Shown: positions 1,067-38,758 of the stretch, one piece after another
How the letters are laid out: each line of letters begins with the position of its first letter
How positions within the stretch are numbered: position 1 is the first letter of the stretch
IMG/VR virus record: IMGVR_UViG_3300015608_002795
Coordinates: 1 to 64,000 of that record
Source: a virus
Taxonomy: Duplodnaviria > Heunggongvirae > Uroviricota > Caudoviricetes
Length of the DNA: 64,000 nt
Direction: 5' to 3' (one strand)
Made by a program: the position numbers and the translations under genes
Notes under the pieces: model-generated
Seen by the model: the letters and a program-made list of their open reading frames with translations, nothing else
What the model was told of the DNA's origin: nothing
Databases searched by the model: none

Positions 1067-1858
1067 ATGATAATTTATAGTTTATCCTCAAGTGAAGATC
1101 CTAATAATGTAAGGTATATAGGAAAAACAAATGATATTAAAAAAAGACTAAAAAGGCATCTTTCGAAATATAATTTGATTCCAGATACGCATAAAAATAG
1201 ATGGATAAAATCCGAAATATCAAAGGGAAATAAAATAATTATCACTGAGATATATCGAATAGTAGATGATGAAAAGTGGCAAGATGTTGAAATTTATTGG
1301 ATTGATAAATATAAAAAGGAAGGATATAAACTAACAAATTCAACAAATGGAGGAGACGGAGGTGTTTTCACAAAAGAGATGTTAGAAAAAAGAAGTGAAA
1401 GTATTAGAAATAAAAATATTAAAAATAAATTAGAGGAAATTGAAAAATATAAAATAAGAGAAATAGATAGTGTGTGGTATGGGGATAGAATTTGTATTTC
1501 GTGTAAGAAAACAATAACACATAAATCTAAAGGATTAAATCAGATTATTTATTTAATAAGGAAGTTGATAAATAAAAAATGTCTTAGTTGTAAATCATTT
1601 GATAGAAAACTTACAAGTGAAGAAAAAGAAAAAATATCTCTATCTAAAAAAAATATATCAGAGGAAACTAGAAAAAAATTGTCCATAATACATAAAGGTA
1701 AGTTTATATCAGAGGAAACTAAAAGAAAGATATCAAATTCATTAACTGGTAAAAAATTATCAGATGAAACTAGAAAAAAAATGTCAAATGCTAAAAAAAG
1801 AAAAAAATATAAAATACCTAGTGGGGATTCAGCCGACAGGGAAGCTAACAATAGGTAA
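1067..1858 (+). CDS. GIY-YIG family homing endonuclease
   Basis: N-terminal 'IIYSLSSSED..VRYIGKTNDIKKRLKRH' GIY-YIG motif; repeated NUMOD-like 'KKLSxETRKK' modules. Confidence 0.85.
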   Translation: MIIYSLSSSEDPNNVRYIGKTNDIKKRLKRHLSKYNLIPDTHKNRWIKSEISKGNKIIITEIYRIVDDEKWQDVEIYWIDKYKKEGYKLTNSTNGGDGGVFTKEMLEKRSESIRNKNIKNKLEEIEKYKIREIDSVWYGDRICISCKKTITHKSKGLNQIIYLIRKLINKKCLSCKSFDRKLTSEEKEKISLSKKNISEETRKKLSIIHKGKFISEETKRKISNSLTGKKLSDETRKKMSNAKKRKKYKIPSGDSADREANNR

Positions 1859-2531
1859 CTACCTAGGTTGTTTAAAGAAAGGCCTAAGGCTTCAAGAGGA
1901 AGGGCATGATGTTACCTTCTTGATAGCAAACTACCATTCTCTAACAACTGATAGTTATACTGATGTAACTGAACAGGAATTAATTAAATTAGGTTGTAAG
2001 AATATAAAAAGACAAACTCCTGAATATACTGAGTTGTTTTTCAAATTATGTTGTAAGCTAAACTTAGGAACATTACTGAAAATGCCTCAATATAAAGACA
2101 AAAAGGAAAATGTAGAATTTGACTTGGGATTGATGTTATATCCTGTATTAATGGCAGCTGATATCATCATTAACGACCCAGATGTAGTAATTGTTGGTAA
2201 AGACCAAATAGCTCACTTAGACCTATGTAATGATATTTCTAAGAGATTTAATGGTAAGTATTACAATTATGAATTAGGTGATGTAGATAAGATTATGTCA
2301 TTGATTGACCCAACAAAAAAGATGTCAAAATCTTTGGGAGAAAGACATGTTCTTTATATTTTTGATGAAAACTATGAAGCAAAAATAAAAAAGGCAAACG
2401 CCAACGAAGAAGGTCTCGAAAATCTTAAAAAGATTGGATTAGGAGTCGGAGTCGATGTTGATAAATATGAAATGAATTCTGATTTAAAGAAGGCTATTTC
2501 AGACAAAATGAATGAAATTTTTAACAAGTAA
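1764..2531 (+). CDS. truncated tryptophanyl-tRNA synthetase-like protein (HIGH motif degenerate as TIGN, KMSKS intact, no C-terminal anticodon-binding domain)
   Basis: 'GIQPTGKLTIGNYLG' aligns to the TrpRS 'GIQPSGxLHLGNYLG' signature; 'KMSKS' present; only ~70 aa after KMSKS; alternative start ATG at 1788. Confidence 0.7.
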   Translation: MKLEKKCQMLKKEKNIKYLVGIQPTGKLTIGNYLGCLKKGLRLQEEGHDVTFLIANYHSLTTDSYTDVTEQELIKLGCKNIKRQTPEYTELFFKLCCKLNLGTLLKMPQYKDKKENVEFDLGLMLYPVLMAADIIINDPDVVIVGKDQIAHLDLCNDISKRFNGKYYNYELGDVDKIMSLIDPTKKMSKSLGERHVLYIFDENYEAKIKKANANEEGLENLKKIGLGVGVDVDKYEMNSDLKKAISDKMNEIFNK

Positions 2532-2611
2532 TAAAATGACAACAATTAAAAACATAAAAAAATCTAAAAAACGAATAAAAATGATTCGATAGATAAGCTA
2601 TTGCCTTAACT

Positions 2612-2647
2612 AACCCGAATCATTGTAAATGGTTCGGGTTTTTTATT
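2612..2647 (+). terminator. intrinsic terminator (AACCCGAA..TTCGGGTT + T-run)
   Basis: perfect 8-bp stem followed by TTTTTTATTT directly after the TrpRS-like stop. Confidence 0.6.
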
Positions 2648-2652
2648 TATAC

Positions 2653-2744
2653 GCGTCGGTTCGCTTAGTTGGCCTAAAGCATCAGACTTTTAATCTGAAG
2701 AGATAATGTTCTCAACCGTGGGTTCGAATCCCACCCGGCGTACA
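2653..2744 (+). tRNA. tRNA, class-II architecture (long variable arm GAGA/TCTC), anticodon loop CTTTTAA (UUU), A73
   Basis: hand fold: acceptor GCGTCGG/CCGGCGT (2 GU), anticodon stem TCAGA/TCTGA, T-arm GTGGG-TTCGAAT-CCCAC. Confidence 0.5.
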
Positions 2745-2750
2745 AAAAAC

Positions 2751-2838: not shown

Positions 2839-2842
2839 CTAA

Positions 2843-2942: not shown

Positions 2943-3704
2943 ATGATTATATATATTATTATGAATAAGGAAACACTATTAAAATATATATCTGATAATT
3001 TGTCTACTCGTGAAATCGCCAAATATGAAGGGGTGACACAATCTAAAGTTAAATATTGGATAAAAAAATATGAAATAAAAACAAAATATTCGGCTTTTGG
3101 TAAGGGAATATCACCAAAAAGAGAAAAACAAGAATTTAATATAGAAGATATAGCTATAAAAAAAGATAGAGTATATAACTATTTATATGGACTATATTTA
3201 GGCGATGGATGCTTATATAAAAGAAAGGATAGAAATGTATCAACAATAACATTTTCTTTAGATAAAAAATATCCAAATATAATTAAGCAGTGTGAGTCGT
3301 ATTTACATGATTTATTTGGTAAATTTCCATATATTTATCATAGAAAAAATTCTAATTCCGTTGATGTGAAATATACATCTATTATAGTCGATAAACTTTT
3401 TTTAAAATACGGAAGTGGGAAAAAACACATGAATGGTATTTATTTACCTAAAATATTAGTAGATAATATTCACTACGATTGTTTATTAAAAGGGTTGTTC
3501 CATTCTGATGGTTCTTATTATTTTAATAATAGATCAGGCACTTATTGTTATAGTTTTACTAATAAAAGTATTGATATACTAAATATTTTTTCAAGATGTC
3601 TAAATTTTTATGATGTAAAGCATAGTTTATCAAAAGATCATATAATGATTCAATCGAATAAGGAAGTCAAAAAATTATATAAAATATTGGAACAAAAAAA
3701 TTAA
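2943..3704 (+). CDS. LAGLIDADG family homing endonuclease
   Basis: two LAGLIDADG motifs 'LYGLYLGDGC' and 'LKGLFHSDGS'; N-terminal HTH 'LSTREIAKYEGVTQSKVKYW'. Confidence 0.85.
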   Translation: MIIYIIMNKETLLKYISDNLSTREIAKYEGVTQSKVKYWIKKYEIKTKYSAFGKGISPKREKQEFNIEDIAIKKDRVYNYLYGLYLGDGCLYKRKDRNVSTITFSLDKKYPNIIKQCESYLHDLFGKFPYIYHRKNSNSVDVKYTSIIVDKLFLKYGSGKKHMNGIYLPKILVDNIHYDCLLKGLFHSDGSYYFNNRSGTYCYSFTNKSIDILNIFSRCLNFYDVKHSLSKDHIMIQSNKEVKKLYKILEQKN

Positions 3705-5024: not shown

Positions 5025-5309
5025 GTGATTTCTTTAAAGCATATGTCATCGCTTGATTTTAATGGAGAGCTTGGATCTATACATATAAAATTATTAGAGG
5101 ATGATGATACATATATTTTAATTTCACTAGGATATAATCATGATATGAAATTTGATATGATGACGTGGACAGATCTTGAAATATGTAAAAATGGAATTCG
5201 TGGGAAAGCATCATGGATGAGACAAGTGAGTCATGGATTAGAAGGATCTTTATTTGATAAAGTAGCAAATTATCTAACAGATAATGAATTAGTTGGCCCT
5301 ATTATTTAA
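5025..5309 (+). CDS. hypothetical protein (94 aa)
   Basis: intact ORF. Confidence 0.35.
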   Translation: MISLKHMSSLDFNGELGSIHIKLLEDDDTYILISLGYNHDMKFDMMTWTDLEICKNGIRGKASWMRQVSHGLEGSLFDKVANYLTDNELVGPII

Positions 5310-5314
5310 ATAAT

Positions 5315-5345
5315 TTTGGTGGGAATAAAAAAAATCGTATCTTTG
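5315..5345 (+). promoter_or_regulatory. Bacteroidetes-type sigma-A promoter (-33 TTTG / -7 TATCTTTG)
   Basis: 'TTTGGTGGG..(20 nt)..CGTATCTTTGTG' read in sequence; motif recurs before most transcription units. Confidence 0.55.
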
Positions 5346-5473
5346 TGAAAACAAAGGAATAAAAATATAATATATACAATTATGAAAATGGTTAATACAA
5401 ATACAAGTTCGTCACGTAGTTCTAACAGCTCGAAAATTCGAAGTTGATTGTATTCTATTGCTATACAATATTG

Positions 5474-5507
5474 AACCTCGAATTTAATTCGAGGTTTTTT
5501 GTTTTAT
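5474..5507 (+). terminator. intrinsic terminator
   Basis: AACCTCGAA-TTTAA-TTCGAGGTT stem-loop followed by TTTTTGTTTTAT. Confidence 0.6.
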
Positions 5508-5580
5508 GGTTCCATCGTCCAACTGGATAGGACATGACCCTGCGAAGGTTAAGATATGAGTTCGAATCTCATTGGGACTT
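5508..5580 (+). tRNA. tRNA-Arg (GCG?)
   Basis: acceptor GGTTCCA/TGGGACT; D-stem GTCC/GGAC; anticodon loop CTGCGAA; T-arm ATGAG-TTCGAAT-CTCAT. Confidence 0.55.
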
Positions 5581-5586
5581 CAAATT

Positions 5587-5675
5587 GGTGAGTTAAGCAG
5601 CTACATTGGAGTGGCGACCAGCTTTGAAACCTGGGTTTCGTTAAATCGGATGGGGGTCGGGTCCTCAGCTCACCG
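5587..5675 (+). tRNA. tRNA, class II, Ser(UGA)-like with C31:C39 mismatch and atypical T-loop GTCGGGT
   Basis: acceptor GGTGAGT/GCTCACC; anticodon region CCAGC-TTTGAAA-CCTGG; variable arm TTCG/CGGA. Confidence 0.4.
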
Positions 5676-5679
5676 CAAT

Positions 5680-5767
5680 GGAGGGATGGCAGAGTTGGTC
5701 TATTGCACCTGACTTGAAATCAGGAGGTCGGGCAACCGATCCGTGGGTTCGAATCCTACTCCCTCCT
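5680..5767 (+). tRNA. tRNA-Ser (UGA)
   Basis: acceptor GGAGGGA/TCCCTCC perfect; anticodon stem CCTGA/TCAGG with loop CTTGAAA; long variable arm; T-arm GTGGG-TTCGAAT-CCTAC. Confidence 0.65.
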
Positions 5768-5772
5768 CAAAT

Positions 5773-5845
5773 GTTCTTGTAGCTCAACGGTTAGAGTTTT
5801 CCGCTTCGAACGGAAAGGATGTAGGTTCGAATCCTACCAAGAATT
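5773..5845 (+). tRNA. tRNA-Arg (UCG)
   Basis: acceptor GTTCTTG/CAAGAAT; anticodon stem TTCCG/CGGAA with loop CTTCGAA; T-arm GTAGG-TTCGAAT-CCTAC. Confidence 0.65.
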
Positions 5846-5894
5846 CAAAAAAATTGAACTCACATTTTAATATATAGTGAAAATATGAGTTCAA

Positions 5895-6467
5895 ATGAAA
5901 TACACAGTATATAAAATAACAAATTTAATAAACGGTAAAATTTATATCGGAGTTCATAAAACAGAAAATTTAGACGATGGATATATGGGATCTGGTAAAA
6001 ATATAAAAAGAGCTATTGACAAATATGGAATTCAAAATTTTAAAAAAGAATATATTAAAATATTTGACAATCAAGAAGATATGTTTAAAATGGAGTCTGA
6101 GTTGGTAAATGAATTATTTTTATCTAGTCGTGAGAATTATAATATAATGAAAGGAGGTCATGGAGGATTTGAACATATAAATAAAAATTGTTGGAATAAA
6201 GAAAGTAGAAAAAATCATCTACAAAAAATATATCATTTGGTTTCAGCTGAAAAAAGAAAGGATATCGGTGCATATATGGGTAAAAACTTTGGGGGTAGTA
6301 ATAGATTAAGAGAGGATGTAATAAATTATAGATTAAAAATACTCGAAACAGTTGATATGTCTAAATATGGTTGGGTAGAAAAAGCTAGTAAATTATTAAA
6401 TATAACACATACACAAGTTAGGAGATTTGTAAATAAATATTATAAAGGAGAATATTATAGAAGATAA
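5895..6467 (+). CDS. GIY-YIG family homing endonuclease
   Basis: 'KYTVYKITNLINGKIYIGVHKT..GYMGSGKNIKRAIDKYG' GIY-YIG core. Confidence 0.8.
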   Translation: MKYTVYKITNLINGKIYIGVHKTENLDDGYMGSGKNIKRAIDKYGIQNFKKEYIKIFDNQEDMFKMESELVNELFLSSRENYNIMKGGHGGFEHINKNCWNKESRKNHLQKIYHLVSAEKRKDIGAYMGKNFGGSNRLREDVINYRLKILETVDMSKYGWVEKASKLLNITHTQVRRFVNKYYKGEYYRR

Positions 6468-6553
6468 GGAGAGTAAAGTAGCCAGGGTGCTACCACCGCC
6501 TGCTAAGCGAGTGGATCGGGTAACTGATTACGTTTCGAGTACGTTGCTCTCCG
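6468..6553 (+). tRNA. tRNA-Ser (GCU)-like, class II, anticodon stem with bulged A
   Basis: acceptor GGAGAGT/GCTCTCC; D-stem GTAGC/GCTAC; anticodon loop CTGCTAA; T-arm ACGT-TTCGAGT-ACGT. Confidence 0.5.
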
Positions 6554-6557
6554 CCAT

Positions 6558-6646
6558 GGTAAAATACCCAAGAGGATGTAAGGGGCTTGCTTGGAAAGCA
6601 AGTAGGTCGGGAAACTGGCGCATGAGTTCGAATCTCATTTTTACCG
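6558..6646 (+). tRNA. tRNA-Ser (GGA)
   Basis: acceptor GGTAAAA/TTTTACC perfect; anticodon stem CTTGC/GCAAG with loop TTGGAAA; long variable arm; T-arm ATGAG-TTCGAAT-CTCAT. Confidence 0.6.
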
Positions 6647-6660
6647 CAAAAATTAAAATT

Positions 6661-6858
6661 ATGATTTTAGAAGAAAATATAAATGGATTAGTTTTTGTTG
6701 AACAAAGGACTTTTTATATCTATAAATCAGAAGAAGATAGAAAAAAAGGAAACTATTCCTTCGTAACTTCTGATGAAAGTTTATTTTTAACTCACAAGGA
6801 AAATTTAAGAAATAAATTGTCAGTTATAAGGGATGAAAAGATAGATAAAGTTTTATGA
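6661..6858 (+). CDS. hypothetical protein (65 aa; track ORF 6487-6858 trimmed to the first ATG downstream of the tRNAs)
   Basis: upstream part of the track ORF is occupied by two tRNA genes. Confidence 0.35.
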   Translation: MILEENINGLVFVEQRTFYIYKSEEDRKKGNYSFVTSDESLFLTHKENLRNKLSVIRDEKIDKVL

Positions 6859-7145
6859 TAATAGGAAATTGTCCAATATGTGATAGAGAAATGTGGGATG
6901 ATAACTCATCTGACCGGCATCATTTTTATCCAAAATGCAAAGGCGGAAAAGAAACAGAATGGGTGCATAGAGTATGTCATAGAAAAATACATTCTATTTT
7001 TACTGAAAATGAGTTAGCTAAAACATATAATAATGCTGAGTTAATTAGAGAGCATCCCGAAATTATTAAATTCGTAAAATGGGTTTCTAAAAAAGAGCCT
7101 GATTTTTATGACAAAACTATAACACATAATAGAAAAAGGAGATAA
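6855..7145 (+). CDS. HNH endonuclease
   Basis: 'CPICDREM..DRHHFYPKCKGGKETEWVHRVCHRKIH' Zn-finger plus HNH signature. Confidence 0.8.
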   Translation: MIIGNCPICDREMWDDNSSDRHHFYPKCKGGKETEWVHRVCHRKIHSIFTENELAKTYNNAELIREHPEIIKFVKWVSKKEPDFYDKTITHNRKRR

Positions 7146-7147
7146 AT

Positions 7148-7597
7148 ATGAATCTTAAAGATTATCAAGAGCATCTTAAAAGGATGAAAGAAGATCCGGA
7201 ATATAAAATGAATTATATTAAGAAAATGAAAGAACAACAGAAGGAAGATTTTCTTAAAATAAAACCATTTGTAAATGCAGAAGATATACCAGATCTACCA
7301 AAGGTAGATGCAAAAGAGTGGAAAGAATACTTTGTTCCGATTCTTATTGAAAAAGGGGCTATTCCTAAAGTAGATTTAATAGATGGTGAGTGGTATTATG
7401 GAGACCACAGAAGATGTAATGTAGCTAAATGGAATGAAAAAGATAATCAATTTGATTATTTAAGATATAAATTTGGATATTTCTGGGATAATTGCAATCA
7501 CTTTGAAGATGATGATGGATATGCATTATTTGTTCCTATAAGAAAAGCAAATAAAGAAGAAATAGAAGAACAAGAAAAAATTAAAAATAACCTATGA
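7148..7597 (+). CDS. hypothetical protein (149 aa)
   Basis: ORF translationally coupled to neighbours (ATGA overlap). Confidence 0.5.
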   Translation: MNLKDYQEHLKRMKEDPEYKMNYIKKMKEQQKEDFLKIKPFVNAEDIPDLPKVDAKEWKEYFVPILIEKGAIPKVDLIDGEWYYGDHRRCNVAKWNEKDNQFDYLRYKFGYFWDNCNHFEDDDGYALFVPIRKANKEEIEEQEKIKNNL

Positions 7598-8055
7598 AAA
7601 AATATTACCAAACAGACGAATTGCAAAAAATGATTGACTGGGATAATATCATGAAAATGAATAGATATGCTGGTGGTCATGACGATCAAATGATTGGATT
7701 GTTTAAAGACTCTACTTTAATAGCTCATTGGAATGAAAATGACTATCAAGGTATGGTGGCTACATGTGTAATGTTGTCTAATGGTAAATTTGCTATCTAT
7801 AATGATTATTATGGATCTTGTTCAGGATGTGATTCATGGGAAGGAGCTGATGATGATTCTGTTAGATCTATGTGTATTAATTTGTCTAATGGTGCTTATG
7901 TTTTTGAAAATATAAATGATGTTGTTTTATTTTTACATGATGAAAATAAAGATGGATATTCTTGGAATGGAAATGCTTCTTCTAATTTATTATCAGAAAT
8001 ACTTAAGAATATACAGATTCTTAGGGATATAAAAATTGAAAAGATTATTCAATAA
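7594..8055 (+). CDS. hypothetical protein (153 aa)
   Basis: overlapping start/stop with the preceding ORF. Confidence 0.5.
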   Translation: MKKYYQTDELQKMIDWDNIMKMNRYAGGHDDQMIGLFKDSTLIAHWNENDYQGMVATCVMLSNGKFAIYNDYYGSCSGCDSWEGADDDSVRSMCINLSNGAYVFENINDVVLFLHDENKDGYSWNGNASSNLLSEILKNIQILRDIKIEKIIQ

Positions 8056-12470: not shown

Positions 12471-12666
12471 AGATACAAATTGGATGAATGATAAAATCCA
12501 AGATATAAAAAAGAGAAAAAGAAAGCTCGAATTACTTCAAGATCCTGAAATGAAAAAAAGAATAAAAAAGGACTTGAAACGTGAATATCGTTCTGTAAAA
12601 AGGGGAGAACGCAATCAAAATAATATATATATGAAAAAAGAAATTGATGAATTCTATAGAAAATAA
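12460..12666 (+). CDS. hypothetical basic protein (68 aa)
   Basis: Lys/Arg-rich ORF. Confidence 0.3.
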   Translation: MKVKDTNWMNDKIQDIKKRKRKLELLQDPEMKKRIKKDLKREYRSVKRGERNQNNIYMKKEIDEFYRK

Positions 12667-13366: not shown

Positions 13367-13614
13367 ATAAAAAAGTAAAAATAGTAAGAGGTAAGTCTCC
13401 TTATATAGCAGATGCTAAAAGCGTTTTAAGTGTTAGGTCTACTTATGATTCTGTGGATTTAAAATTTACCTTTAATTGTGAAAATAGAAAATTATCCATT
13501 ATAGATGAATATAGAAGAAGTCAAGATTATCTATATGGTAAAGAATATCGTGTAGAATACATGGTAGATTTACAATTAGTTAGAGAAGAACAAATTAAAA
13601 AATTATTAAAATGA
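13363..13614 (+). CDS. hypothetical protein (83 aa)
   Basis: coupled ORF. Confidence 0.4.
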   Translation: MNKKVKIVRGKSPYIADAKSVLSVRSTYDSVDLKFTFNCENRKLSIIDEYRRSQDYLYGKEYRVEYMVDLQLVREEQIKKLLK

Positions 13615-22277: not shown

Positions 22278-22339
22278 GTGCCTTCCAAGCATCGGATGTC
22301 GGTTCGATTCCGACTATTCGCTCAAAAAATAAAGTAAAA

Positions 22340-22695: not shown

Positions 22696-22769
22696 GCGGG
22701 TGACGCATAAATGATGGTGCACCAGATTGCCATTCTGGAACAGAGCCGGTTTGATCCCGGTCACCCGCA
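22696..22769 (+). tRNA. tRNA-Gly (GCC)
   Basis: acceptor GCGGGTG/CACCCGC perfect; anticodon stem CCAGA/TCTGG with loop TTGCCAT; T-arm GCCGG-TTTGATC-CCGGT. Confidence 0.65.
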
Positions 22770-23544: not shown

Positions 23545-23610
23545 GGGGGATTAGCTCAGTTGGCTAGAGCACCTGCCTTGGGTCATCGGTTCGAATCCGA
23601 TATCCTCCAC
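23545..23610 (+). tRNA. truncated tRNA-Pro(UGG)-like gene (3' half of anticodon stem and variable loop missing)
   Basis: GGGGGAT-TA-GCTC-AGTTGGCTA-GAGC-A-CCTGC-CTTGGGT then directly T-arm CATCGG-TTCGAAT-CCGAT and ATCCTCC; 63 nt instead of about 73. Confidence 0.4.
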
Positions 23611-24486
23611 TATGAAAGGAGAAATCATGCGGGACGCATAAACGTCACAGAGGAGTATAAATCTTTCTGTGACTCAAAAGGAATCAAATTCCAAATGGAT
23701 GATAATGTAAAATCCTATGATGATACAACACTATTTTGTCCAGCTGGAATGCAACAGTTTAAGTCTAAGTTTAAAGACTTAAGCTACAAAGGAACAATAT
23801 CAAATATTCAATCTTGTTTAAGGTTGAATGATATAGAAGAAATTGGTGACGGAACACATTTACTCTACTTTAACATGATTGGACTTTTTTCATTCAGAGA
23901 GTTGAGTCTATCAGAAACAATTGATTTTTGGATAGAATTTTTAAATAAAATAGGAATAATTCCTGACTATGTAACAATCCATCCTAATAAATTAAATTGG
24001 GGAGAGTGGTATAAAAAACATAATGTAGAAATAAGAATAGACGAGGAATGTAAATGGACAGATGGTGAAATAGGTGGTTACTGTACTGAGTTTTATAAGA
24101 ATGGTATTGAAATAGGAAATATTGTAAATACCATGGATAATTGTATAGATGTTGGATTTGGATTGGAAAGAATTGAAATGGTATTAAATGGTAAAGGAAA
24201 ATCTAAAGAGGAAACCCTTACACAAACAATACTTAAAATAATTGAAAGTGGATTTAAGCCAACATACAATAAACAAGGTTCTTTATTGCGTAGGTTATTG
24301 AGGATATGTTATTTACAAAATATTGAAATTAATCATCAATATTATTTGGATGAAATAAAAAGGCAGGAAAGGATATTAGAAAAGTGGAATAGGTTAAAGG
24401 ATAAGCATAAAGACAAGTCAAAAGATTGGTGGTGGAATACACATGGAATTGACATAAATCAAATAGAAGATGGAGACATTATATAA
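23560..24486 (+). CDS. alanyl-tRNA synthetase catalytic (aminoacylation) domain only, ~300 aa; start codon unclear
   Basis: 'TTLFCPAGMQQFK', 'RLNDIEEIGDGTHLLYFNMIGLFSF', 'DGEIGGYCTEFY' and 'IDVGFGLERIEMVL' align with AlaRS motifs; no editing or C-Ala domain; the only in-frame ATG lies inside the truncated tRNA. Confidence 0.65.
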   Translation: MARAPALGHRFESDILHYERRNHAGRINVTEEYKSFCDSKGIKFQMDDNVKSYDDTTLFCPAGMQQFKSKFKDLSYKGTISNIQSCLRLNDIEEIGDGTHLLYFNMIGLFSFRELSLSETIDFWIEFLNKIGIIPDYVTIHPNKLNWGEWYKKHNVEIRIDEECKWTDGEIGGYCTEFYKNGIEIGNIVNTMDNCIDVGFGLERIEMVLNGKGKSKEETLTQTILKIIESGFKPTYNKQGSLLRRLLRICYLQNIEINHQYYLDEIKRQERILEKWNRLKDKHKDKSKDWWWNTHGIDINQIEDGDII

Positions 24487-25190
24487 TATAAATAGTTTAG
24501 TTTTTTGGGAAGAAAAAGATATTAGAATAAGAAGATTTATTGAAGATTCGATCAAAGAAGAAATGAAATCTATTCTTCTTTCTCAAAATTCAGCGTGGAA
24601 ATTTTATCAAATTGAAGCACCTTGTTTGATTCCAATTGATTTAATCAATCCGAATTATACGAGTGAAGATATATGGATTCAAGAGGATAAGGAGTTAGTT
24701 TTAAAACCAGAGACTACACCAAGTTCTTACGTATATGCTCAACACCTACTTAATTCTAATAGATGCTTACCACCACTTGTGGTTTGGCAAACATCTAAAT
24801 CATTTAGAAGAGAGCAAGATCAGGTTCTTAAAAACATGAGACTGAAGGAGTTTTATCAACAAGAGTTTCAATGTATATATGCTTCTGATACTTTGAATGA
24901 CTATCAGGAAAAGGTATTAGAACCTTCTAATTGCTTTGCCAGCAAGAATTGTTGAAAGTGATAGATTACCCTCTTATAGTTTAAGAACGATGGATATTGA
25001 AGTTTTTAATGATGATAAATGGATGGAAGTTTGTTCAATATCGAAGAGGACAGATTTTCCACAAAAAGCTAGAATTCATGTAAAAGATAGAGTTATAGAA
25101 AAAGACTTATTAGTACTTGAAATAGCTTTAGGTTCGGATAGGTTATTGTATAATTATTTGGAGAGAACAAAAAAAAGTCGTATATTGTAA
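24470..25190 (+). pseudogene. class-II aaRS-like catalytic core interrupted by a frameshift (ORFs 24470-24955 and 24936-25190)
   Basis: 'LKPETTPSSY..LPPLVVWQTSKSFRREQDQVLKNMRLKEFYQQEF' resembles class-II motif 2; the downstream frame carries the motif-3-like 'EIALGSDRLLY'. Confidence 0.45.
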
Positions 25191-25648: not shown

Positions 25649-25721
25649 GCGGAAGTAGCTCATTTGGTAGAGCACCGTCCTTCCAAGTCGGGGGTGGCCG
25701 GTTCGAGCCCGGTCTTCCGCT
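25649..25721 (+). tRNA. tRNA-Gly (UCC)
   Basis: acceptor GCGGAAG/CTTCCGC perfect; anticodon stem CCGTC/GTCGG with loop CTTCCAA; T-arm GCCGG-TTCGAGC-CCGGT. Confidence 0.65.
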
Positions 25722-25844
25722 CCAAAACGGATTTGCAACCCGTTATTTTTAAAAACATATCATTTTTCTTTGTCAAAAGGAGGATAAAAAGATTCTCTAG
25801 GAGAACGAATTAATTTAATATATAATGTTAAATTAATTCGTTCT

Positions 25845-27342: not shown

Positions 27343-29274
27343 ATGAAAAAATCTATTTTATTGCTTTGCCTTCTTATTGGGGGCAAAGCTTTTTCACAAG
27401 AGAAAAGTGATACAGGTCAAATTACTCAACTTGATCGAGTAATTGTTATGGGAATTAGAGGTGATAAAAAAACACCAATAACACAAAAGACAATTTCAAA
27501 GAAAGAAATCACACAATTTTATCAAGGGCAGGAAATTCCAATACTGCTAGATAAAACTCCATCTATAACTTCTCAAACCGATGGAGGTCATACACAAGGA
27601 TATACCTATTTTCGAATTAGGGGAATTGATCAAACAAGAGTTAATATGACACTAAACGGAGTTCCTCTAAACGAACCAGAAGATCAAGGTGTTTATACCT
27701 CTAACTATCCAGGGTTCGCTAATGTAATTCAATCGGTTCAAGTTCAAAGGGGTGTAGGAACATCAAGTAATGGTGTTGCCTCATATGGTGGGTCAATTAG
27801 CTTTTTGAGTCAAAGTGGTATTAATAGGGGTTCTGAAATTGATTTAGGGTATGGATCGTTTAATACTAAACGACTTAACTACTCAAATAGTACAGGATTA
27901 AGTAGAAAAAACCTCTCCTTATTTACCAATTTATCATTATACTCAAGTGATGGATATAGGTATAATTCAGGGGGAAAAGGATATTCATTATTTATGAGCG
28001 GAGGTTACTACAAAGATCTTAATATACTTAAGTTTACAGCATTTACTGGTATGTCAACTAATCAAATGGCATGGCTTGCTGTTTCTGAAGATGATATTAA
28101 ATACGATAGAAAAACTAATTATAATAAAGGTGATGCTGATGATAAATTCAACCAAACTTTTGCTCAATTACAATGGACTAAAATTGTAAATAAAAATTCT
28201 AAATTTTCTTCTAATTTATTCTATAATAGGCTTGATGGCTCTTATGATTTACACTTCATATCACCGGGAACAAGAACTTTATTTTTATCATCTAATTTTT
28301 ATGGACTAGTTAGTAATTATTTATATCATAAAAATAGTGTTAAAATTAATATTGGTGCCAGTATATCTGGATATAATAGGAATCACAGCAATGACACTCT
28401 AGGGTACACAAATACTGGATATAAAAGTGAAATTAATATCTTCTCGAAGTTAAATTATGATATTCAAAAAGTAACATTTTTTGGAGACATTCAATATCGT
28501 TATACAGATTTTAAATATCATGGTGATGTTAAGTTAGATAGACTCAAATGGAATTTCTTCAATCCGAAGGCAGGTATTATTTATACAAAAAATAAATTTT
28601 TAAACTATTATTTTTCAGTGGGGACTACAAAAAGAGAGCCAACAAGAACTAACTTATTTAGTGGTGGTGATAATTTAATATCATTAAATAAGATTGATCC
28701 GGAGAAAGTTATTGATTATGAATTGGGTGTGAATTTCAAAGATGATAAATTATCTATTCAGGGCAATTTGTATTATATGAATTTTCGTAATGAAATTACT
28801 CCAATTGGGCCAATGGGTGCAAACAGTCTTCCACTAATGATTAATGTCGATAAGAGTCTTAGAAGTGGTGTGGAAGTTGATTTTACATATATATTTAATG
28901 ATCTTACATTTTATACGAATCTCAATATATCACATAATAAGGTAAATAATAAAGGAAGTGAATTCAAGCCACTCTATACGCCTAATTTTGTTATGAATCA
29001 ATCCATTACATTTAACTATAATCAACTATCATTTGGCATCAATAGTAAGTGCCAAGGAAAATCTTATATTAGTTTTGATAACAACTATTCAATACCATCA
29101 TTTATCATATTTGGTTTCAATATTAGTTACGAACAAAAATCATACACCTTTGTACTACAAGGAAATAATTTAACAGATAATAAATATTATACAAGCGGGT
29201 ATGTTGATTCGAGAGTTAGATATTATACAAATGCATTATCAAACTTTTATCTCACTATTAAAAAGAAATTTTAA
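27343..29274 (+). CDS. TonB-dependent-receptor-like outer-membrane beta-barrel protein (signal peptide, C-terminal Phe)
   Basis: 'MKKSILLLCLLIGGKAFSQ' signal peptide; plug-like N-terminal region; alternating beta-strand pattern with Tyr/Asn/Gly richness; terminal '..KKKF'. Confidence 0.6.
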   Translation: MKKSILLLCLLIGGKAFSQEKSDTGQITQLDRVIVMGIRGDKKTPITQKTISKKEITQFYQGQEIPILLDKTPSITSQTDGGHTQGYTYFRIRGIDQTRVNMTLNGVPLNEPEDQGVYTSNYPGFANVIQSVQVQRGVGTSSNGVASYGGSISFLSQSGINRGSEIDLGYGSFNTKRLNYSNSTGLSRKNLSLFTNLSLYSSDGYRYNSGGKGYSLFMSGGYYKDLNILKFTAFTGMSTNQMAWLAVSEDDIKYDRKTNYNKGDADDKFNQTFAQLQWTKIVNKNSKFSSNLFYNRLDGSYDLHFISPGTRTLFLSSNFYGLVSNYLYHKNSVKINIGASISGYNRNHSNDTLGYTNTGYKSEINIFSKLNYDIQKVTFFGDIQYRYTDFKYHGDVKLDRLKWNFFNPKAGIIYTKNKFLNYYFSVGTTKREPTRTNLFSGGDNLISLNKIDPEKVIDYELGVNFKDDKLSIQGNLYYMNFRNEITPIGPMGANSLPLMINVDKSLRSGVEVDFTYIFNDLTFYTNLNISHNKVNNKGSEFKPLYTPNFVMNQSITFNYNQLSFGINSKCQGKSYISFDNNYSIPSFIIFGFNISYEQKSYTFVLQGNNLTDNKYYTSGYVDSRVRYYTNALSNFYLTIKKKF

Positions 29275-33378: not shown

Positions 33379-33451
33379 GTGGGAGTAGCTCAGTTGGTAA
33401 GAGCACCTGCATCGAGGCAGGCGGTCGGTGGTTCAAGTCCATCCTCCCATA
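33379..33451 (+). tRNA. tRNA with 6-nt anticodon loop ATCGAG (Arg UCG-like, one nt short)
   Basis: acceptor GTGGGAG/CTCCCAT; canonical D-arm GCTC-AGTTGGTAA-GAGC; anticodon stem CCTGC/GCAGG perfect but loop only 6 nt; T-arm GGTGG-TTCAAGT-CCATC. Confidence 0.45.
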
Positions 33452-33495
33452 CAAATCTTTAGTCTGATCAACTATTGACTGGATGGTTCGAAACA
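33452..33495 (+). ncRNA. tRNA top-half minihelix (acceptor-like stem TGATCAA/TTGATTA + T-arm GGATG-GTTCGAAA-CATCC)
   Basis: about 43-nt element with a T-loop consensus and a 7-bp terminal stem but no D or anticodon arm. Confidence 0.3.
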
Positions 33496-33994: not shown

Positions 33995-34070
33995 TGGCAT
34001 GGCTTAGAGGAAAAGAGCGGTCTCTCATAAGGACTGTCAAGTGGGTTCGAACCCCACGCATGCTACTAAT
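33995..34070 (+). tRNA. tRNA (CAU anticodon hairpin GGTCT-CTCATAA-GGACT); acceptor pairing imperfect
   Basis: T-arm GTGGG-TTCGAAC-CCCAC; D-stem GCT/AGC. Confidence 0.35.
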
Positions 34071-34130
34071 TCGGATTGGAAATTACCACTTCGGACTTTT
34101 AATATATATATAATAAAAATTAAAAAAGAA

Positions 34131-34733
34131 ATGTGTAATTATGGATGGAGTAACGGATTAGACTCCGCAAATGACAATAGAATTAGAAGTAAATATAAAT
34201 ATATAGCACTTTGTGAAAATTCAAATATTCACAGAGGAGTTTTAAGAAATAAAATAATTAAAGAGGGATTAATATTATATAAATGTTCAGAATGTGGAAT
34301 TACCAATGAATGGAATGGGAAAAAAATAATTTTAGAACTGGATCATATAAGCGGTGATAGTACTGATAATAGAATTGAAAATTTAAGATTTTTGTGTCCA
34401 AATTGTCATTCTCAAACACCAACATTTAAAGGTAGAAATAAACCGAAGTCAGAAAAAGAAATAAAAATAAGAAAAGAAAAGAAAAAAAAGGAGAGGAGAA
34501 AAAAAATAAAAAATAAAAAATGCAATAATTGTAGTAAAATGTGTAGCTTTAATGCGGATGTTTGTAGGGACTGTTACAAAATATTACAAAGAAAATATGA
34601 TAGACCAGATGATCAAATATTATTAAGACAGGTTAAAGAATTTGGATATACAAAAACATCAAAAATATATGGAGTTTCTGATAAAACTATTAAAAAATGG
34701 TTTGAGGATTTATCGGATACACCGAAAGATTAA
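34131..34733 (+). CDS. HNH homing endonuclease (track ORF 34041 trimmed to the ATG downstream of the tRNA)
   Basis: 'CSECGITNEWNGKKIILELDHISGDSTDNRIENLRFLCPNCHSQTPTF'; C-terminal HTH-like 'YGVSDKTIKKWF'. Confidence 0.75.
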   Translation: MCNYGWSNGLDSANDNRIRSKYKYIALCENSNIHRGVLRNKIIKEGLILYKCSECGITNEWNGKKIILELDHISGDSTDNRIENLRFLCPNCHSQTPTFKGRNKPKSEKEIKIRKEKKKKERRKKIKNKKCNNCSKMCSFNADVCRDCYKILQRKYDRPDDQILLRQVKEFGYTKTSKIYGVSDKTIKKWFEDLSDTPKD

Positions 34734-35046: not shown

Positions 35047-35658
35047 ATGATATTTAAAGAGTTTCCAAAAATAGCAAGATTATCAAGAGAGATAATCATC
35101 ACTGAAAAAATAGATGGTACTAATTCATCTGTTTTTATTCAAAGTGCTGCTTTGGAAGAGGGCAGTAACCCCGAAATAATTGAGAATGTCAATGGTCTTA
35201 CTGTTAGAGCAGGTAGTAGAACTCGTTGGGTTACACCAACTGATGATAACAAAGGATTTGCTCGTTGGGTAAAAGAAAATGCCGAAGAATTGGTAAAGCT
35301 CGGTGAGGGTCATCACTTTGGTGAATGGTGGGGTAATGGTATTCAAAGGGGATATAATCTACCAAGAGGTGATAAAAGATTTTCGCTATTCAATGCAGGT
35401 AGATGGAGAATAAATTCCTTTGAAGAAAAAGGATTTGAGTGTCCACCAAAATGTTGTTCAGTAGTTCCTGTATTATATACTGGTATTTTCGATACCAATG
35501 CAATACAAGATACTCTTAACGAACTTATTGAGCATGGTAGTTATGCAGCTCCGGGTTTTATGAATCCTGAAGGAATTGTAATTTATCACATTGCTGGTAA
35601 TTTAGGATTTAAAAAAACTATTAAAAATGACGATAGACCAAAATCATTAATAGAATAG
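35047..35658 (+). CDS. ATP-dependent RNA/DNA ligase-like nucleotidyltransferase, motif I 'KIDGTN'
   Basis: 'REIIITEKIDGTNSSVFIQ' lysine-adenylylation motif about 20 aa from the N-terminus (Rnl2/Lig-like arrangement). Confidence 0.6.
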   Translation: MIFKEFPKIARLSREIIITEKIDGTNSSVFIQSAALEEGSNPEIIENVNGLTVRAGSRTRWVTPTDDNKGFARWVKENAEELVKLGEGHHFGEWWGNGIQRGYNLPRGDKRFSLFNAGRWRINSFEEKGFECPPKCCSVVPVLYTGIFDTNAIQDTLNELIEHGSYAAPGFMNPEGIVIYHIAGNLGFKKTIKNDDRPKSLIE

Positions 35659-36957: not shown

Positions 36958-36961
36958 ATCT

Positions 36962-37420
36962 ATGAAGAAAATATTTGAATTTAATGTAGATAATACAATA
37001 GATATAATAACGAATTCATCTTCTGAACTATTTGTTCTAAAGGGAAAGACTAAAGAAATAGTAGAAGAGATGATCAGAGAAGTCTATCCGTCATTTGAAG
37101 ATGAGTACAAGCTAGTAACAATAGAAGAGTGTGATGAGGATGATTTATCTACATATATAAACAGTGTCTTTTTAAAATATGATAGTGATGATTTTGCTAT
37201 GTGTAAAAAACTAAATGTCCGACCAAATATCTTATACAAAAATTTTGGAATGTATGGTATTGAAAATTATTGGAGCGGAGAATATTCTAAAGAGGGTAGA
37301 GAAATTTTACTAAATAATATTCCAAAGAATACCTATTTATTATTCTCCTTAGATGAAAATCCTAATTGGGATATGCAGGAGCGTTTAATGACTATTGCAT
37401 CTAGATATCATCTTGGATAA
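36962..37420 (+). CDS. hypothetical protein (152 aa)
   Basis: coupled to the radical SAM gene. Confidence 0.5.
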   Translation: MKKIFEFNVDNTIDIITNSSSELFVLKGKTKEIVEEMIREVYPSFEDEYKLVTIEECDEDDLSTYINSVFLKYDSDDFAMCKKLNVRPNILYKNFGMYGIENYWSGEYSKEGREILLNNIPKNTYLLFSLDENPNWDMQERLMTIASRYHLG

Positions 37421-37422
37421 TT

Positions 37423-37453
37423 TTTGGAATATAAAAAAAATATAGTATATTTG
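37423..37453 (+). promoter_or_regulatory. Bacteroidetes-type promoter (TTTGGAAT..TAGTATATTTGTAA)
   Basis: followed by the terminator hairpin at 37537-37566 and then the ArgRS-like gene. Confidence 0.5.
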
Positions 37454-37588
37454 TAATATGAAATTAATGGTAAATAATAGGAATAGAGAAACAGATTCAG
37501 TCTGATTGGATATTCCTTGCTAAAAAATAACAAGATAACCCGTCAGAAATGACGGGTTTTTTTGTGCTAAAAATTAAAAATTAAAAAA

Positions 37589-38758
37589 ATGAAAATTGAT
37601 ATAAACAAAATAAAAATAACACCAGAAAAACTTGGATTTAATTTCTGCCAATTTGGTGAATTAACAGAAGAAGTAAAATCTTGGGTTGATTTTTGGAAAT
37701 TTAAAACAGAAAAATCAGGACCATTTACTAACATAATAGTTGGTGATATAGATTTTGAATTAATATTCAATGAATCAGTCAGTTACGACTATGTAGATGG
37801 ATTTAGTCCTAACCTAAATAAACATCTTCATGTTGGACATTTATCAAATCTTGTTATTGCAAATGCAATGCAGAAATTGGGAATAGGAAAAGAGTTCATT
37901 GCAATATTAGGTGATACCTTAGATGGTGAGGTAAATAAGTCAGATGCACTTTCATCATACCAAAAATATTGTCAAGAATTCAATTATAAAGTAGATAAAA
38001 TTTTTTACGCTTCTGACATGAAATTAAAGGATGATATTTTAAAAGAGGGAGAAGGTGACTACTTAGGATCAAAAGTATTTGATTTAGGTGATGAAAAAAT
38101 AGTTGGAATAAAGAGTTCTGGATTAACATCTTACTTTTATCAAGATGTTGCCTTAGCTCAACACTTAAATTCATCGACTCTTTATCTGACTGGTTTTGAA
38201 CAGGATAATCACTTCAAATCATTAAAGAAGCTATTTCCATCGACAAACCATATAGGTTTAGGATTAGTTCTTCTAAATGGTAAGAAAATGTCAAGTAGTG
38301 AAGGTAATATCATTCTATTAAAAGATTTTATAAACCAACTATTAGAAATGTTTAATGATATAAAATTGGTTTATAATATTTTAGCTGGTCAAATTTTAAA
38401 ATCAGCACCAGGTAGTAGTAAATCAATTGATATGAAACTAATTAGTAATCCTAAATTATCACTTGGGTTATATTTAAGTTACACTATGGCACATATTAAA
38501 AGTTGTGGAGTAGAAACAAAAAAAATTAAAAATTATGTATCAGAGGAATTACAATTTGCAGAACTAAAATCAAAAGTAAATTTAAGTCCTAATTTATTAT
38601 TTGAATCTCTAGTAAAACACTGTAAGTCAATTAATAAGTTATATGAGACACATTATATAAAAAACAACAAAGAAAATATAGAACTTTTCTCTACACTAAT
38701 CTCTGATTTAGAGTTAGGAATGAGTAAATTAGGTATGTTTTCCATTGATAAAGTATAA
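37589..38758 (+). CDS. class-I aminoacyl-tRNA-synthetase-like catalytic core (ArgRS-like: 'LHVGHLSN' HIGH and 'KMSSS'), no anticodon-binding domain
   Basis: 'FSPNLNKHLHVGHLSNLVIANAMQKLG' resembles the ArgRS/CysRS HIGH region; 'KMSSSEGN' is KMSKS-like; 389 aa versus more than 550 aa for a full ArgRS. Confidence 0.55.
   Translation: MKIDINKIKITPEKLGFNFCQFGELTEEVKSWVDFWKFKTEKSGPFTNIIVGDIDFELIFNESVSYDYVDGFSPNLNKHLHVGHLSNLVIANAMQKLGIGKEFIAILGDTLDGEVNKSDALSSYQKYCQEFNYKVDKIFYASDMKLKDDILKEGEGDYLGSKVFDLGDEKIVGIKSSGLTSYFYQDVALAQHLNSSTLYLTGFEQDNHFKSLKKLFPSTNHIGLGLVLLNGKKMSSSEGNIILLKDFINQLLEMFNDIKLVYNILAGQILKSAPGSSKSIDMKLISNPKLSLGLYLSYTMAHIKSCGVETKKIKNYVSEELQFAELKSKVNLSPNLLFESLVKHCKSINKLYETHYIKNNKENIELFSTLISDLELGMSKLGMFSIDKV

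Follow-up and report, generated by a model that had tools for sequence, protein, structure and literature searches.

Four genes for miniature aminoacyl-tRNA synthetase (aaRS) homologues, of the Trp, Ala, Gly, and Arg types, are present in the viral DNA analyzed here (positions 1 to 64,000 of IMG/VR record IMGVR_UViG_3300015608_002795, hereafter called the window), and their sequence features suggest that they most likely encode working miniaturized phage synthetases. Phage-encoded synthetases as such are already known. The systematic miniaturization of the synthetases of this phage clade, in small forms that are old, widespread, and under selection, is undescribed in the literature searched.

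The phage of the window belongs to a clade of uncultured huge phages of 0.6-0.7 Mb represented by LR756501-4 and LR745206, which are its sole DNA or protein relatives within the phage collection. The window contains part of the translation island of this clade, with over 45 tRNA genes along with RNA ligases, homing endonucleases, and the miniaturized aaRS set (Table 1). In both the window phage and its relatives, aaRS genes lie beside tRNA genes for the matching amino acid. The original prediction that aaRS homologues much shorter than the cellular enzymes reside in a phage tRNA island was borne out. All four ORFs lie at the positions it gave, profile searches (Pfam, NCBIfam) upheld the family assignments (Trp, Ala, class II, and Arg), and the quoted motifs LTIGNYLG, KMSKS, HVGH, and KMSSS were confirmed. 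A fifth synthetase gene, a remnant at 38770-38811, had been overlooked.

Table 1. Synthetase-like genes, tRNA genes, and a leader ORF in the window
Feature	Position	Strand	Description	Basis
Mini-TrpRS gene	1764..2531	+	ORF of 255 aa; family core ~237-240 aa	Pfam, PDB, hhalign
tRNA-Gly(UCC)	22240-22322	+	14-nt D-loop insertion; upstream of the Ala/Gly synthetase pair	Rfam alignment
tRNA-Gly(GCC)	22696-22769	+	Upstream of the Ala/Gly synthetase pair	Rfam alignment
tRNA-Ala(UGC)	23545..23609	+	Clean 9-nt deletion; just upstream of the AlaRS-like gene	Rfam
Leader ORF	23612..23641	+	MKGEIMRDA, then stop; out of frame with the AlaRS-like gene	Sequence read directly
Mini-AlaRS-like gene	23638..24486	+	~282 aa; no canonical in-frame start codon	
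GlyRS-like class II core	24470..25190	+	Family ~246 aa; split into ORFs of 161 aa and 84 aa	
tRNA-Gly(UCC)	25649..25724	+	Downstream of the GlyRS-like gene	ARAGORN, Rfam
Mini-ArgRS gene	37589..38758	+	389 aa; HVGH, KMSSS, compact catalytic domain, predicted C-terminal helical domain	
Class IIb Asn/AspRS-like remnant	38770..38811	+	12 codons, then GS and stop	tblastn, DNA alignment
tRNA-Arg(CCU)	38855..38928	+	Adjoins the ArgRS-like gene	

Family lengths and selection

The standard lengths of the four families are approximately 240 (TrpRS-like), 276 (AlaRS-like), 246 (GlyRS-like), and 390 (ArgRS-like) amino acids. We found 1050 homologues of the AlaRS-like protein (238-311 aa), 913 of the GlyRS-like protein (~246 aa), and 640 of the ArgRS-like protein (~390 aa). 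Relatives of the TrpRS-like protein measure 237 and 239 aa, and representatives of its 50%-identity clusters, which spread down to ~40% identity, span 236-257 aa and align up to the last residues of the query. Hundreds of 90%-identity clusters, drawn from many samples and from contigs of up to 687 kb, show the short forms as the rule. The same truncations do occur in related phages, as the original prediction had proposed to check, and its refuting condition of full-length versions in relatives fails for the genes of the Trp, Ala, and Arg types. The four genes are not random truncations; each is as long as is usual for its large, conserved family carried by these huge phages. Furthermore, the aaRS genes are under strong purifying selection (pN of 0.08-0.18 versus pS of 0.6-0.78), with pairwise dN/dS values of ~0.09 overall and 0.10 for the TrpRS-like gene.

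Catalytic cores and tRNA-binding modules

It had been proposed that all four proteins lack anticodon-recognition modules. This holds for the AlaRS-like and GlyRS-like proteins, which are the only two truly without the usual tRNA-binding modules, but not for the ArgRS-like protein and largely not for the TrpRS-like protein. All four also score far below their NCBIfam equivalog cut-offs, which counts against their being active enzymes.

The TrpRS-like ORF matches Pfam tRNA-synt_1b (PF00579; E of 1.9e-38), trpS (TIGR00233; E of 2.6e-36, 125.6 bits, below the equivalog cut-off of 176.75), and TrpRS chains in the PDB (E of ~1e-28, with an identical TIGNY). Its TIGN motif had been read as a degenerate HIGH sequence. 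We reject this reading because TIGN is a normal bacterial TrpRS signature; the same TIGNY occurs in the active enzymes 6dfu, 5dk4, and 1i6k, and relatives of the gene carry HIGN. The suggestion of a non-catalytic paralogue rested on this misreading and is unsupported, given that the catalytic motifs are near-invariant across the family. Specifically, HIGH/TIGN, KMSKS, GxDQ, and YPxLMAxD vary little or not at all; GNY, YPxLMxxD, GxDQxxH, and KMSK are kept, with KMSK invariant; and Y119, P120, L122, M123, D126, G138, D140, Q141, and H144 are invariant among 19 diverse members. KMSKS is intact as predicted, and 66 residues follow it. Because the hhalign match of the family spans positions 4-290 of the 334 in canonical TrpRS (probability 100), a trimmed helical domain is retained, and what is missing is mainly the last ~44 residues plus some loops. 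The alignment ends at position 290, and so the full-length architecture with its C-terminal helix is not present. In relative L002, tRNA-Trp(CCA) genes flank the orthologous gene.

The ArgRS-like protein has a Rossmann catalytic domain with HxGH, and its best structural match is ArgRS. Both HxGH and KMS are kept in the family. In the predicted model, 350 of the 389 residues superpose on ArgRS and residues 244-380 form helices, which indicates the presence of a C-terminal helical (DALR-type) anticodon-binding domain; no Pfam DALR_1 match was reported. Only ~65 residues precede HVGH, versus ~110-130 in aligned ArgRS chains, and the N-terminal Add-1 (D-loop-binding) domain is reduced or lost. Scores are 32.9 bits against TIGR00456 (argS; cut-off of 261.65) and 21.4 bits against PF00750, just below the cut-off of 23.3.

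Dimeric GlyRS is the best match of each half (24470-24955 and 24936-25190) of the GlyRS-like class II core, and the family profile also matches GlyRS best (8sld; E of 5e-12). All GlyRS-type motifs tested (RPET, FRNE, RTxDIE, RTDF, and motif 3) are present, and PETT, FRRE, TxDxE, RxDF, and the DR of motif 3 are invariant in the family. These proteins stop ~12 residues past motif 3 and carry no C-terminal class IIa anticodon-binding domain. The score against PRK04173 is 28.7 bits (cut-off of 312).

The ORF at 23560-24486 was correctly assigned to the AlaRS family (tRNA-synt_2c, E of 1.8e-17; alaS TIGR00344, 66 bits against a cut-off of 457). However, its first ~26 codons derive from the tRNA-Ala gene, and homology begins at 23638. 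The predicted absence of editing and C-Ala domains was confirmed, as the protein ends at ~282 aa. Its catalytic core carries three internal deletions, and the rest of the protein consists of the first tRNA-recognition-domain helices and a helical tail of ~50 aa. The family has motifs 2 and 3 as well as the Asn and Asp that bind alanine, and in it the motif-2 Arg, the Asn of EIGNIVN, and IDxGxGLER are invariant. The segment PSNxKQGYVLRKLLR aligns with P301-R312 of the Escherichia coli enzyme, and the segment expected to hold D400, which together with N303 reads G3:U70 in that enzyme, is deleted or unalignable. A resemblance of WWWDTHG to LYDTYGFP is not significant.

Several features of the AlaRS-like protein count against an active enzyme. 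The equivalent of E. coli N303 is Tyr in the window (PTYN rather than PSN); most of 76 cellular homologues have PGN at this position. The C-terminal 50 residues give no significant alignment to AlaRS, and the ancestral start codon, ATG in relatives, is ATA here. In E. coli AlaRS, a fragment of 368 residues makes only the adenylate and charging needs 461 residues. To our knowledge, every AlaRS fragment that can aminoacylate exceeds the 276 aa of the phage form. The leader ORF upstream contains AGGAGA (23617-23622) located 4 nt upstream of an internal ATG (23627), and its stop codon overlaps the ATA (as AUAA); equivalent leader ORFs are found in relatives L003 and L014.

Erosion of the set in one strain

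The aaRS set is under erosion in the strain of the window. Fresh damage includes a 20-nt deletion in the GlyRS-like gene, the 9-nt deletion in tRNA-Ala, the reduction of the Asn/AspRS-like gene to a stub, and the ATA start of the AlaRS-like gene. With the tRNA-Ala deletion, the anticodon loop is partly missing and the anticodon stem has lost its 3′ strand, leaving an anticodon arm of 7 nt rather than 15. The gene is otherwise near-identical to the tRNA-Ala gene of L003, which differs in having 'CACGCAGGA'. It scores 46.3 bits against the Rfam tRNA model, was not called by ARAGORN, and retains foldable acceptor and T arms. It also keeps G3:U70 and A73, as does every phage tRNA-Ala gene examined. 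The Asn/AspRS-like gene is intact (392 aa) at the same position in the closest distinct relative, and in L099 an intact copy begins 11 nt after the ArgRS-like gene. The remnant is identical at 33 of 36 nt to the copy in L004, which matches Pfam tRNA-synt_2 with an E of 1.1e-61.

The original prediction described motif-2- and motif-3-like segments of a class II core in two frames. The core and its segments are real, and the two frames are the product of the deletion after position 24924, which also removes 6-8 core residues. An intact 246-aa ORF is present in L003. The label 'degenerate' therefore suits this recently frameshifted gene, whose relatives are intact at 246 aa, but not the Trp, Ala, and Arg genes. 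The deletion occurs in all contigs of the strain. The identical broken ORF recurs across several samples and two assemblers, in no fewer than 24 contigs, and is therefore a real allele rather than an artefact.

Such damage raises the question of whether the genes were ordinary phage synthetases of full length that became pseudogenes by recent truncation, or that only look truncated through assembly artefacts. In addition to these lesions, ATA occupies the ancestral start of the TrpRS-like gene as well (1809-1811, where relatives use ATG; in-frame ATGs at 1764 and 1788 lie within an overlapping GIY-YIG ORF), and the AlaRS-like gene is broken in two as well in a single contig of low coverage (L013). 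However, besides the prevalence of the short forms, the low dN/dS values, and the reality of the broken allele, the C-termini of the aaRS families are conserved to the last residues and the predicted structures of the mini-aaRS proteins fold with high confidence. We consider this explanation of the set very improbable. The length distributions refute it where the Trp, Ala, and Arg genes are concerned, and it holds for the GlyRS-like and Asn/AspRS-like loci only.

Perhaps the split GlyRS-like gene still functions, with programmed +1 ribosomal frameshifting near 24920-24955 joining the two frames, or with two polypeptides together making up the enzyme. Identity to intact relatives is 80-88% for the two halves, and the 84-codon downstream piece is still open and conserved like the upstream piece (80-84% versus 84-88% identity; pN of 0.097 versus 0.080). 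Moreover, the two ORFs overlap by 20 nt, the second contains a TTG at 24936, and the allele is fixed across many samples. However, the shift comes from a deletion that costs core residues, there is no recognizable slippery or shifty motif at the junction, and the split form occurs in no other family member among the 120 matches listed. Contigs with the broken gene are also 99.9-100% identical over the compared locus and therefore represent one recent lineage, in which decay has had no time to show. Continued function of the split gene seems improbable.

The repeated loss of genes of this set in one strain shows that they are dispensable, which counts against the proposal that they encode active enzymes.

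Proposed functions and known systems

The four families are probably active synthetases that would charge phage and/or host tRNAs during infection and so make translation less reliant on host synthetases. Mini-ArgRS and mini-TrpRS, with their trimmed anticodon-binding helical domains, probably read the anticodon. Mini-AlaRS, in which the editing domain and C-Ala are gone and little of the tRNA-recognition domain is left, would rely on the acceptor-stem G3:U70 pair, a reliance common to all AlaRS enzymes; the phage tRNA-Ala genes carry this pair. Mini-GlyRS, as a bare class II core, would need acceptor-end contacts or a partner. We tentatively raise the further possibility, which we hold to be rather unlikely, that the conserved aaRS kit of huge phages consists of the smallest tRNA-charging enzymes found in nature. 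Its ~276-aa AlaRS and ~246-aa GlyRS, lacking any canonical tRNA-binding module, would recognize the acceptor end only, perhaps preferring the structurally unusual tRNAs of the phage as a natural, partly orthogonal 'operational code', and their counterparts on Rhizobiales plasmids might serve as toxin-resistant spares. For the possible orthogonal or regulatory system of the original prediction, the one observation that bears on it is the synteny with cognate tRNA genes.

It is also conceivable, but unlikely, that the AlaRS-like and GlyRS-like proteins, as paralogues of synthetases, have been co-opted for tasks other than charging tRNAs. Candidate roles include an AcmF-like aminoacyl-tRNA-dependent transferase, an amino acid:carrier-protein ligase, a tRNA-independent adenylate-forming or Ap4A-making enzyme, and a decoy or spare part against translation-targeting toxins. 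Proteins of the same families and lengths, with ~50% full-length identity, are encoded on Rhizobiales plasmids, where PGAP names them 'Alanine--tRNA ligase-related protein' or 'aminoacyl--tRNA ligase-related protein'. A non-translation role is possible because these relatives are solitary genes on cellular replicons without adjacent tRNA genes. In contrast, the phage genes sit among tRNAs, and tRNA-Gly and tRNA-Ala genes surround the Ala/Gly pair in the window, L003, L014, L015, and L016. No paper on the function of the plasmid proteins was found in the literature searched. AcmF (PMC12945691), which serves ascamycin biosynthesis as an AlaRS-like aminoacyl transferase, is likewise a truncated AlaRS homologue missing both the editing domain and C-Ala. 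However, AcmF keeps the whole tRNA-recognition domain, has lost ATP- and alanine-activation residues (N219Q, D232E), and is non-activating, whereas the Asn and Asp mutated in AcmF are both invariant in the phage AlaRS-like family.

TrpRS and LeuRS 'urzymes' and N-terminal AlaRS fragments are laboratory-made catalytic cores of low activity that act on acceptor-stem substrates and have been linked to an operational RNA code. Like urzymes, the phage mini-aaRS proteins are catalytic cores in which the anticodon-binding module is small or absent, but their reduction is natural, conserved, and less extreme, as CP1 and a shortened helical domain persist in mini-TrpRS.

A supporting precedent is the Tupanvirus enzyme TuAlaRS (Antika et al. 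2023, PMC10036535), which lacks editing and C-Ala domains but is still able to charge tRNA-Ala as well as microhelices. For TuAlaRS, the acceptor stem alone suffices, without the canonical G3:U70-reading N and D residues (PMC10036535). Both proteins are virus-encoded AlaRS forms without these two domains. However, TuAlaRS has 461 aa and a complete tRNA-recognition domain, while the phage protein has ~276 aa, only the first recognition-domain helices, and three further catalytic-domain deletions.

The window phage belongs to the same clade as the huge phages of Al-Shayeb et al. (2020, Nature 578:425, PMC7162821), for which per-genome maxima of 15 aaRS and 67 tRNAs were reported and phage charging of its own tRNA variants was proposed. 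The portions of that paper that were searched contain no description of domain loss or conserved miniature lengths. The aaRS families in PHROGs v4 are of full-length type only (368, 897, and 592 profile positions) and all unannotated, and this collection has no family for the GlyRS-like protein.

The three independent lesions in this strain show that the aaRS genes are accessory and turn over fast, and this strain-level erosion bears on any claim that a charging system of their own is something huge phages need. If the miniature proteins are active, they would define natural lower size limits for AlaRS, GlyRS, TrpRS, and ArgRS, permit a direct test of tRNA selection by catalytic cores via the acceptor stem alone, and offer compact candidate parts for engineered translation systems.

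Short TrpRS and ArgRS families

The original prediction described four truncated or degenerate aminoacyl-tRNA synthetase-like genes, all without anticodon-recognition modules. The observation of the genes is real, but both general claims, as well as several details, are wrong. Related phages encode TrpRS-like, AlaRS-like, GlyRS-like, and ArgRS-like proteins of the same lengths, and the four genes are best explained as a conserved phage set of miniaturised, probably active synthetases (mini-TrpRS, mini-ArgRS, mini-AlaRS, and mini-GlyRS).

The TrpRS-like ORF is present where predicted, and a profile search confirms its family (PF00579, E 1.9e-38). Its LTIGNYLG segment had been taken for a damaged HIGH motif, but it is the normal signature of bacterial TrpRS. 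Three crystallised enzymes (6dfu, 5dk4, and 1i6k) carry the identical TIGNY and align with the window protein through it, and HIGN is found in the orthologues of LR756502 and LR756501. These orthologues (239 and 237 aa) and the window copy share one end point. Among 1.8 billion cluster representatives, an exhaustive search recovered a distinct group of 236-257 aa, with identity down to ~40%, that aligned through the query's last residue; ordinary TrpRS of ~330 aa ranked after this group and aligned to query residues 17-215 only. GNY, YPxLMxxD, GxDQxxH, and KMSK are invariant in 19 diverse members. When its profile was compared with that of 20 canonical TrpRS, the mini-TrpRS family aligned to canonical positions 4-290 of 334 (probability 100). 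Therefore, the helical domain after KMSKS, rather than being absent as the claim of a missing anticodon module implied, is trimmed; several loops and the final ~44 residues are missing.

The ancestral ATG of this gene is replaced by ATA at 1809-1811 in the window. In-frame ATGs at 1764 and 1788, within the overlapping GIY-YIG endonuclease ORF, can be used as starts. A cyclodipeptide synthase was also considered for the 255-aa ORF and excluded: both HIGH and KMSKS are intact, and TrpRS identity is ~35%.

The ArgRS-like ORF is likewise present, and its family assignment by profile search rests on weak sequence matches, with similarity to ArgRS limited to three collinear patches (the HVGH, 'TYFYQDVA', and KMSSS regions). 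Among 640 family matches, the best 120 all have a length of ~390 aa and an identity of at least 64%, on contigs of up to 640 kb. A confident AlphaFold2 model from 23 family members (pLDDT 91.7, pTM 0.90) has seven helices at residues 244-380, C-terminal to KMSSS. The protein is therefore a compact ArgRS that has kept its anticodon-binding domain, and the claim that this domain is missing is wrong. The reduction concerns the N-terminal Add-1 domain (~65 residues before HVGH) and catalytic-domain insertions.

A fifth synthetase locus, absent from the original prediction, is an Asn/AspRS-like remnant identical to LR745206 at 33 of 36 nt. An intact 392-aa gene occupies that position in the closest distinct relative (locus L099), whose ArgRS-like protein is 92% identical.

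The AlaRS-like and GlyRS-like pair

The location and family of the AlaRS-like ORF hold (PF01411, E 1.8e-17), and the lack of an editing domain and C-Ala was borne out. Its 5' part does not stand, in that the ORF start at 23560 falls inside tRNA-like sequence, and similarity to both AlaRS and the family is seen only from 23638 on. The best 120 of 1050 family matches span 238-311 aa, which reflects differing start calls. By hhalign with three real AlaRS N-terminal regions, residues 1-235 align with AlaRS 1-323 with three internal deletions in the core (~18, 12, and 28 residues), and 'PSNxKQGYVLRKLLR' corresponds to E. coli P301-R312. The motif-2 arginine, the EIGNIVN Asn, and the IDxGxGLER Asp are invariant in the phage family, whereas the latter two positions are mutated in AcmF, a non-activating AlaRS-like enzyme (PMC12945691). 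By comparison, the Tupanvirus 'mini-AlaRS', which charges tRNA-Ala and microhelices, has 461 aa (PMC10036535), far more than the ~276 aa of the phage protein. A conserved helical stretch forms the last ~50 residues, for which neither HMM searches nor local hhalign gave a confident AlaRS placement. Two weak and mutually exclusive placements, 'LYDTYGFP' by eye and 'NIKVDEAGFEAAMEEQ' (probability 2.5%), were not accepted.

Where AlaRS homology begins, most family members have ATG-AAY, and the window, LR745206, and a third contig have ATA, ATT, and GTA, respectively. In these three, a short out-of-frame ORF with an ATG has a stop that overlaps or abuts this codon. Purifying selection on the main ORF leads us to regard this as a functional initiation arrangement, possibly involving a frameshift or re-initiation at a near-cognate codon, rather than as decay. 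Separately, a 1-nt gap in one low-coverage contig of the same strain (L013, 461-1250) breaks the gene into ORFs of 75 and 201 aa; this gap may reflect either an additional lesion or an error in sequencing.

The third ORF is, as predicted, a class II core; its profile matches are of the G/H/P/S/T type, and dimeric GlyRS is the best profile match for both halves. Its LR745206 counterpart is a single 246-aa ORF. Of 913 homologues, the best 120 are nearly all 240-260 aa, and the family profile has dimeric GlyRS as its top match (E 5e-12), with GlyRS-type motifs invariant. The protein ends ~12 residues past motif 3 and therefore is without the class IIa anticodon-binding domain. The window copy is frameshifted by a 20-nt deletion after 24924. 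At least 24 contigs, which come from several ENA samples plus a single JGI sample and from two assemblers, encode the identical 161-aa product and share 99.9-100% identity across the locus; an assembly error is thereby excluded, and the deletion represents a genuine allele of a single strain. The two halves are equally conserved relative to intact relatives, which fits a recent event. A near-identity DNA search found no match to the Ala/Gly locus in the phage collection, and protein-level tblastn was used for its relatives there.

Selection, tRNA synteny, and strain erosion

Against the nearest sequenced relatives, pN is 0.08-0.18, pS is 0.6-0.78, and dN/dS is ~0.09 (Nei-Gojobori); dN/dS was not computable in two comparisons because dS was saturated. 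For the ArgRS-like gene against the more distant LR756504 (53% identity), pN is 0.32 and dN/dS is 0.22.

Cognate tRNA genes accompany the synthetase genes. The Ala/Gly pair in the window has two tRNA-Gly genes upstream and one downstream, plus a tRNA-Ala. In three of the four metagenomic contigs inspected, the AlaRS-like gene is preceded by Gly and Ala tRNAs, and such tRNAs flank the LR745206 pair on both sides. A tRNA-Arg adjoins the ArgRS-like gene, and the LR756501 TrpRS-like gene has tRNA-Trp on both flanks. Gene order in the Ala/Gly and Arg/Asn pairs varies among relatives.

Every tRNA-Ala gene compared has G3:U70 and A73. The window tRNA-Ala(UGC) differs from its LR745206 counterpart by two substitutions and a clean 9-nt deletion in which the anticodon and the 3' strand of its stem are lost. 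G3:U70 and A73 remain, as does the ability of the acceptor and T arms to fold. Alongside the Asn/AspRS-like remnant and the frameshifted GlyRS-like gene, this is one of three independent lesions in one strain's charging kit. In the window strain, the GlyRS copy is freshly broken and neighbouring elements are eroding.

Coordinates of features in the window and in related loci
Feature	Sequence	Position	Remark
TrpRS-like ORF	window	1764-2531	
AlaRS-like ORF	window	23560-24486	
GlyRS-like gene	window	24470-25190	
ArgRS-like ORF	window	37589-38758	
GIY-YIG/NUMOD3 homing endonuclease ORF	window	1067-1858	95-nt overlap with TrpRS-like 5' end
Homing-endonuclease-type ORFs (LAGLIDADG, GIY-YIG, NUMOD, HNH)	window	2943-3704, 5895-6467, 12644-13366, 22819-23463, 25845-26564, 34041-34733, 38890-39630(-)	
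RNA-ligase-family ORFs (n=3)	window	13611-14270, 14254-14973, 35047-35658	within tRNA island
tRNAs of 80-91 nt	window	2653-2743, 2751-2839; also e.g. 19153, 31532, 32271, 32363, 32457, 46362, 46818	
Odd tRNA-like gene, Ile(UAU)-like	window	21693-21773	no D arm; 22-nt extra region
Odd tRNA-Gly(UCC)	window	22240-22322	14-nt D-loop insertion
Odd tRNA-like genes	window	33379-33452, 46157-46230	two-base 'anticodons' per ARAGORN
tRNA-Ala(UGC), damaged	window	23545-23609	directly upstream of AlaRS-like gene; no ARAGORN call
Conserved short out-of-frame leader ORF	window; L003 (LR745206); L014 (metagenomic relative)	23612-23641; ~2977-3000; ~2019-2036	5' of AlaRS-like gene
Class IIb Asn/AspRS-like remnant	window	38770-38811	12 codons ('MKGWIKSIRQSKGS') then stop; 11 nt past ArgRS-like stop codon
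Intact Asn/AspRS-like gene	L099; L004 (LR745206)	5182-6360; 1288-2466	
AlaRS-like gene	L097 (Rhizobium leguminosarum pRL4b5)	7004-7849	solitary; adjoins RES-Xre toxin-antitoxin pair
GlyRS-like homologue, 53% identity	L098 (Devosia neptuniae plasmid)	6001-6756	solitary; adjoins HipBA (HipA-HipB)

The tRNA island and cellular homologues

The window is AT-rich (GC ~30%), with 41 tRNA genes by ARAGORN and 43 Rfam tRNA matches, six of them at sites without an ARAGORN call. Long variable arms in bacteria are normally confined to Leu, Ser, and Tyr tRNAs. Here, tRNAs with Lys anticodons have long stem-loop variable arms on inspection of their structures, and those with Glu, Asn, Cys, Val, Thr, Asp, and Gln anticodons, by length only, are 83-88 nt versus the usual ~76 nt. 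Within the phage collection, its relatives are limited to LR756501-4 and LR745206, uncultured phages of 635-735 kb. They belong to the clade of Al-Shayeb et al. 2020, who reported up to 67 tRNAs and up to 15 synthetases per genome (PMC7162821).

Among the other genes of the window, many homing-endonuclease-type ORFs are scattered between the tRNA and synthetase genes, three RNA-ligase-family ORFs possibly function in tRNA repair, and one gene encodes a ClpB-like ATPase. A TonB-dependent receptor (Plug and beta-barrel domains, 27343-29274) is also phage-encoded; such cargo is unusual and might point to a Gram-negative host. No further synthetase gene was found in a scan of 30 of the other window ORFs of at least 190 aa.

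With each bacterial or archaeal species represented by one genome, a scan found 76 loci with full-length AlaRS-like proteins at ~45-60% identity, mostly in Rhizobium, Neorhizobium, Inquilinus, and Caulobacteraceae. The Rhizobium plasmid gene is annotated 'alanine--tRNA ligase-related protein'. No comparable plasmid copies were found for the ArgRS-like family. Literature searches turned up nothing specific on miniature phage synthetases, on the Rhizobium AlaRS-related protein, or on the Devosia GlyRS-like homologue. Given the solitary plasmid homologues, the two class II proteins, mini-AlaRS and mini-GlyRS, may have a role other than plain tRNA charging.

The analysis establishes the family membership and conservation of the mini-synthetase genes and the presence of the lesions in this strain. 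Catalytic activity, tRNA specificity, and any orthogonality are inferences, and the mini-TrpRS, mini-ArgRS, mini-AlaRS, and mini-GlyRS families are probably active as synthetases.
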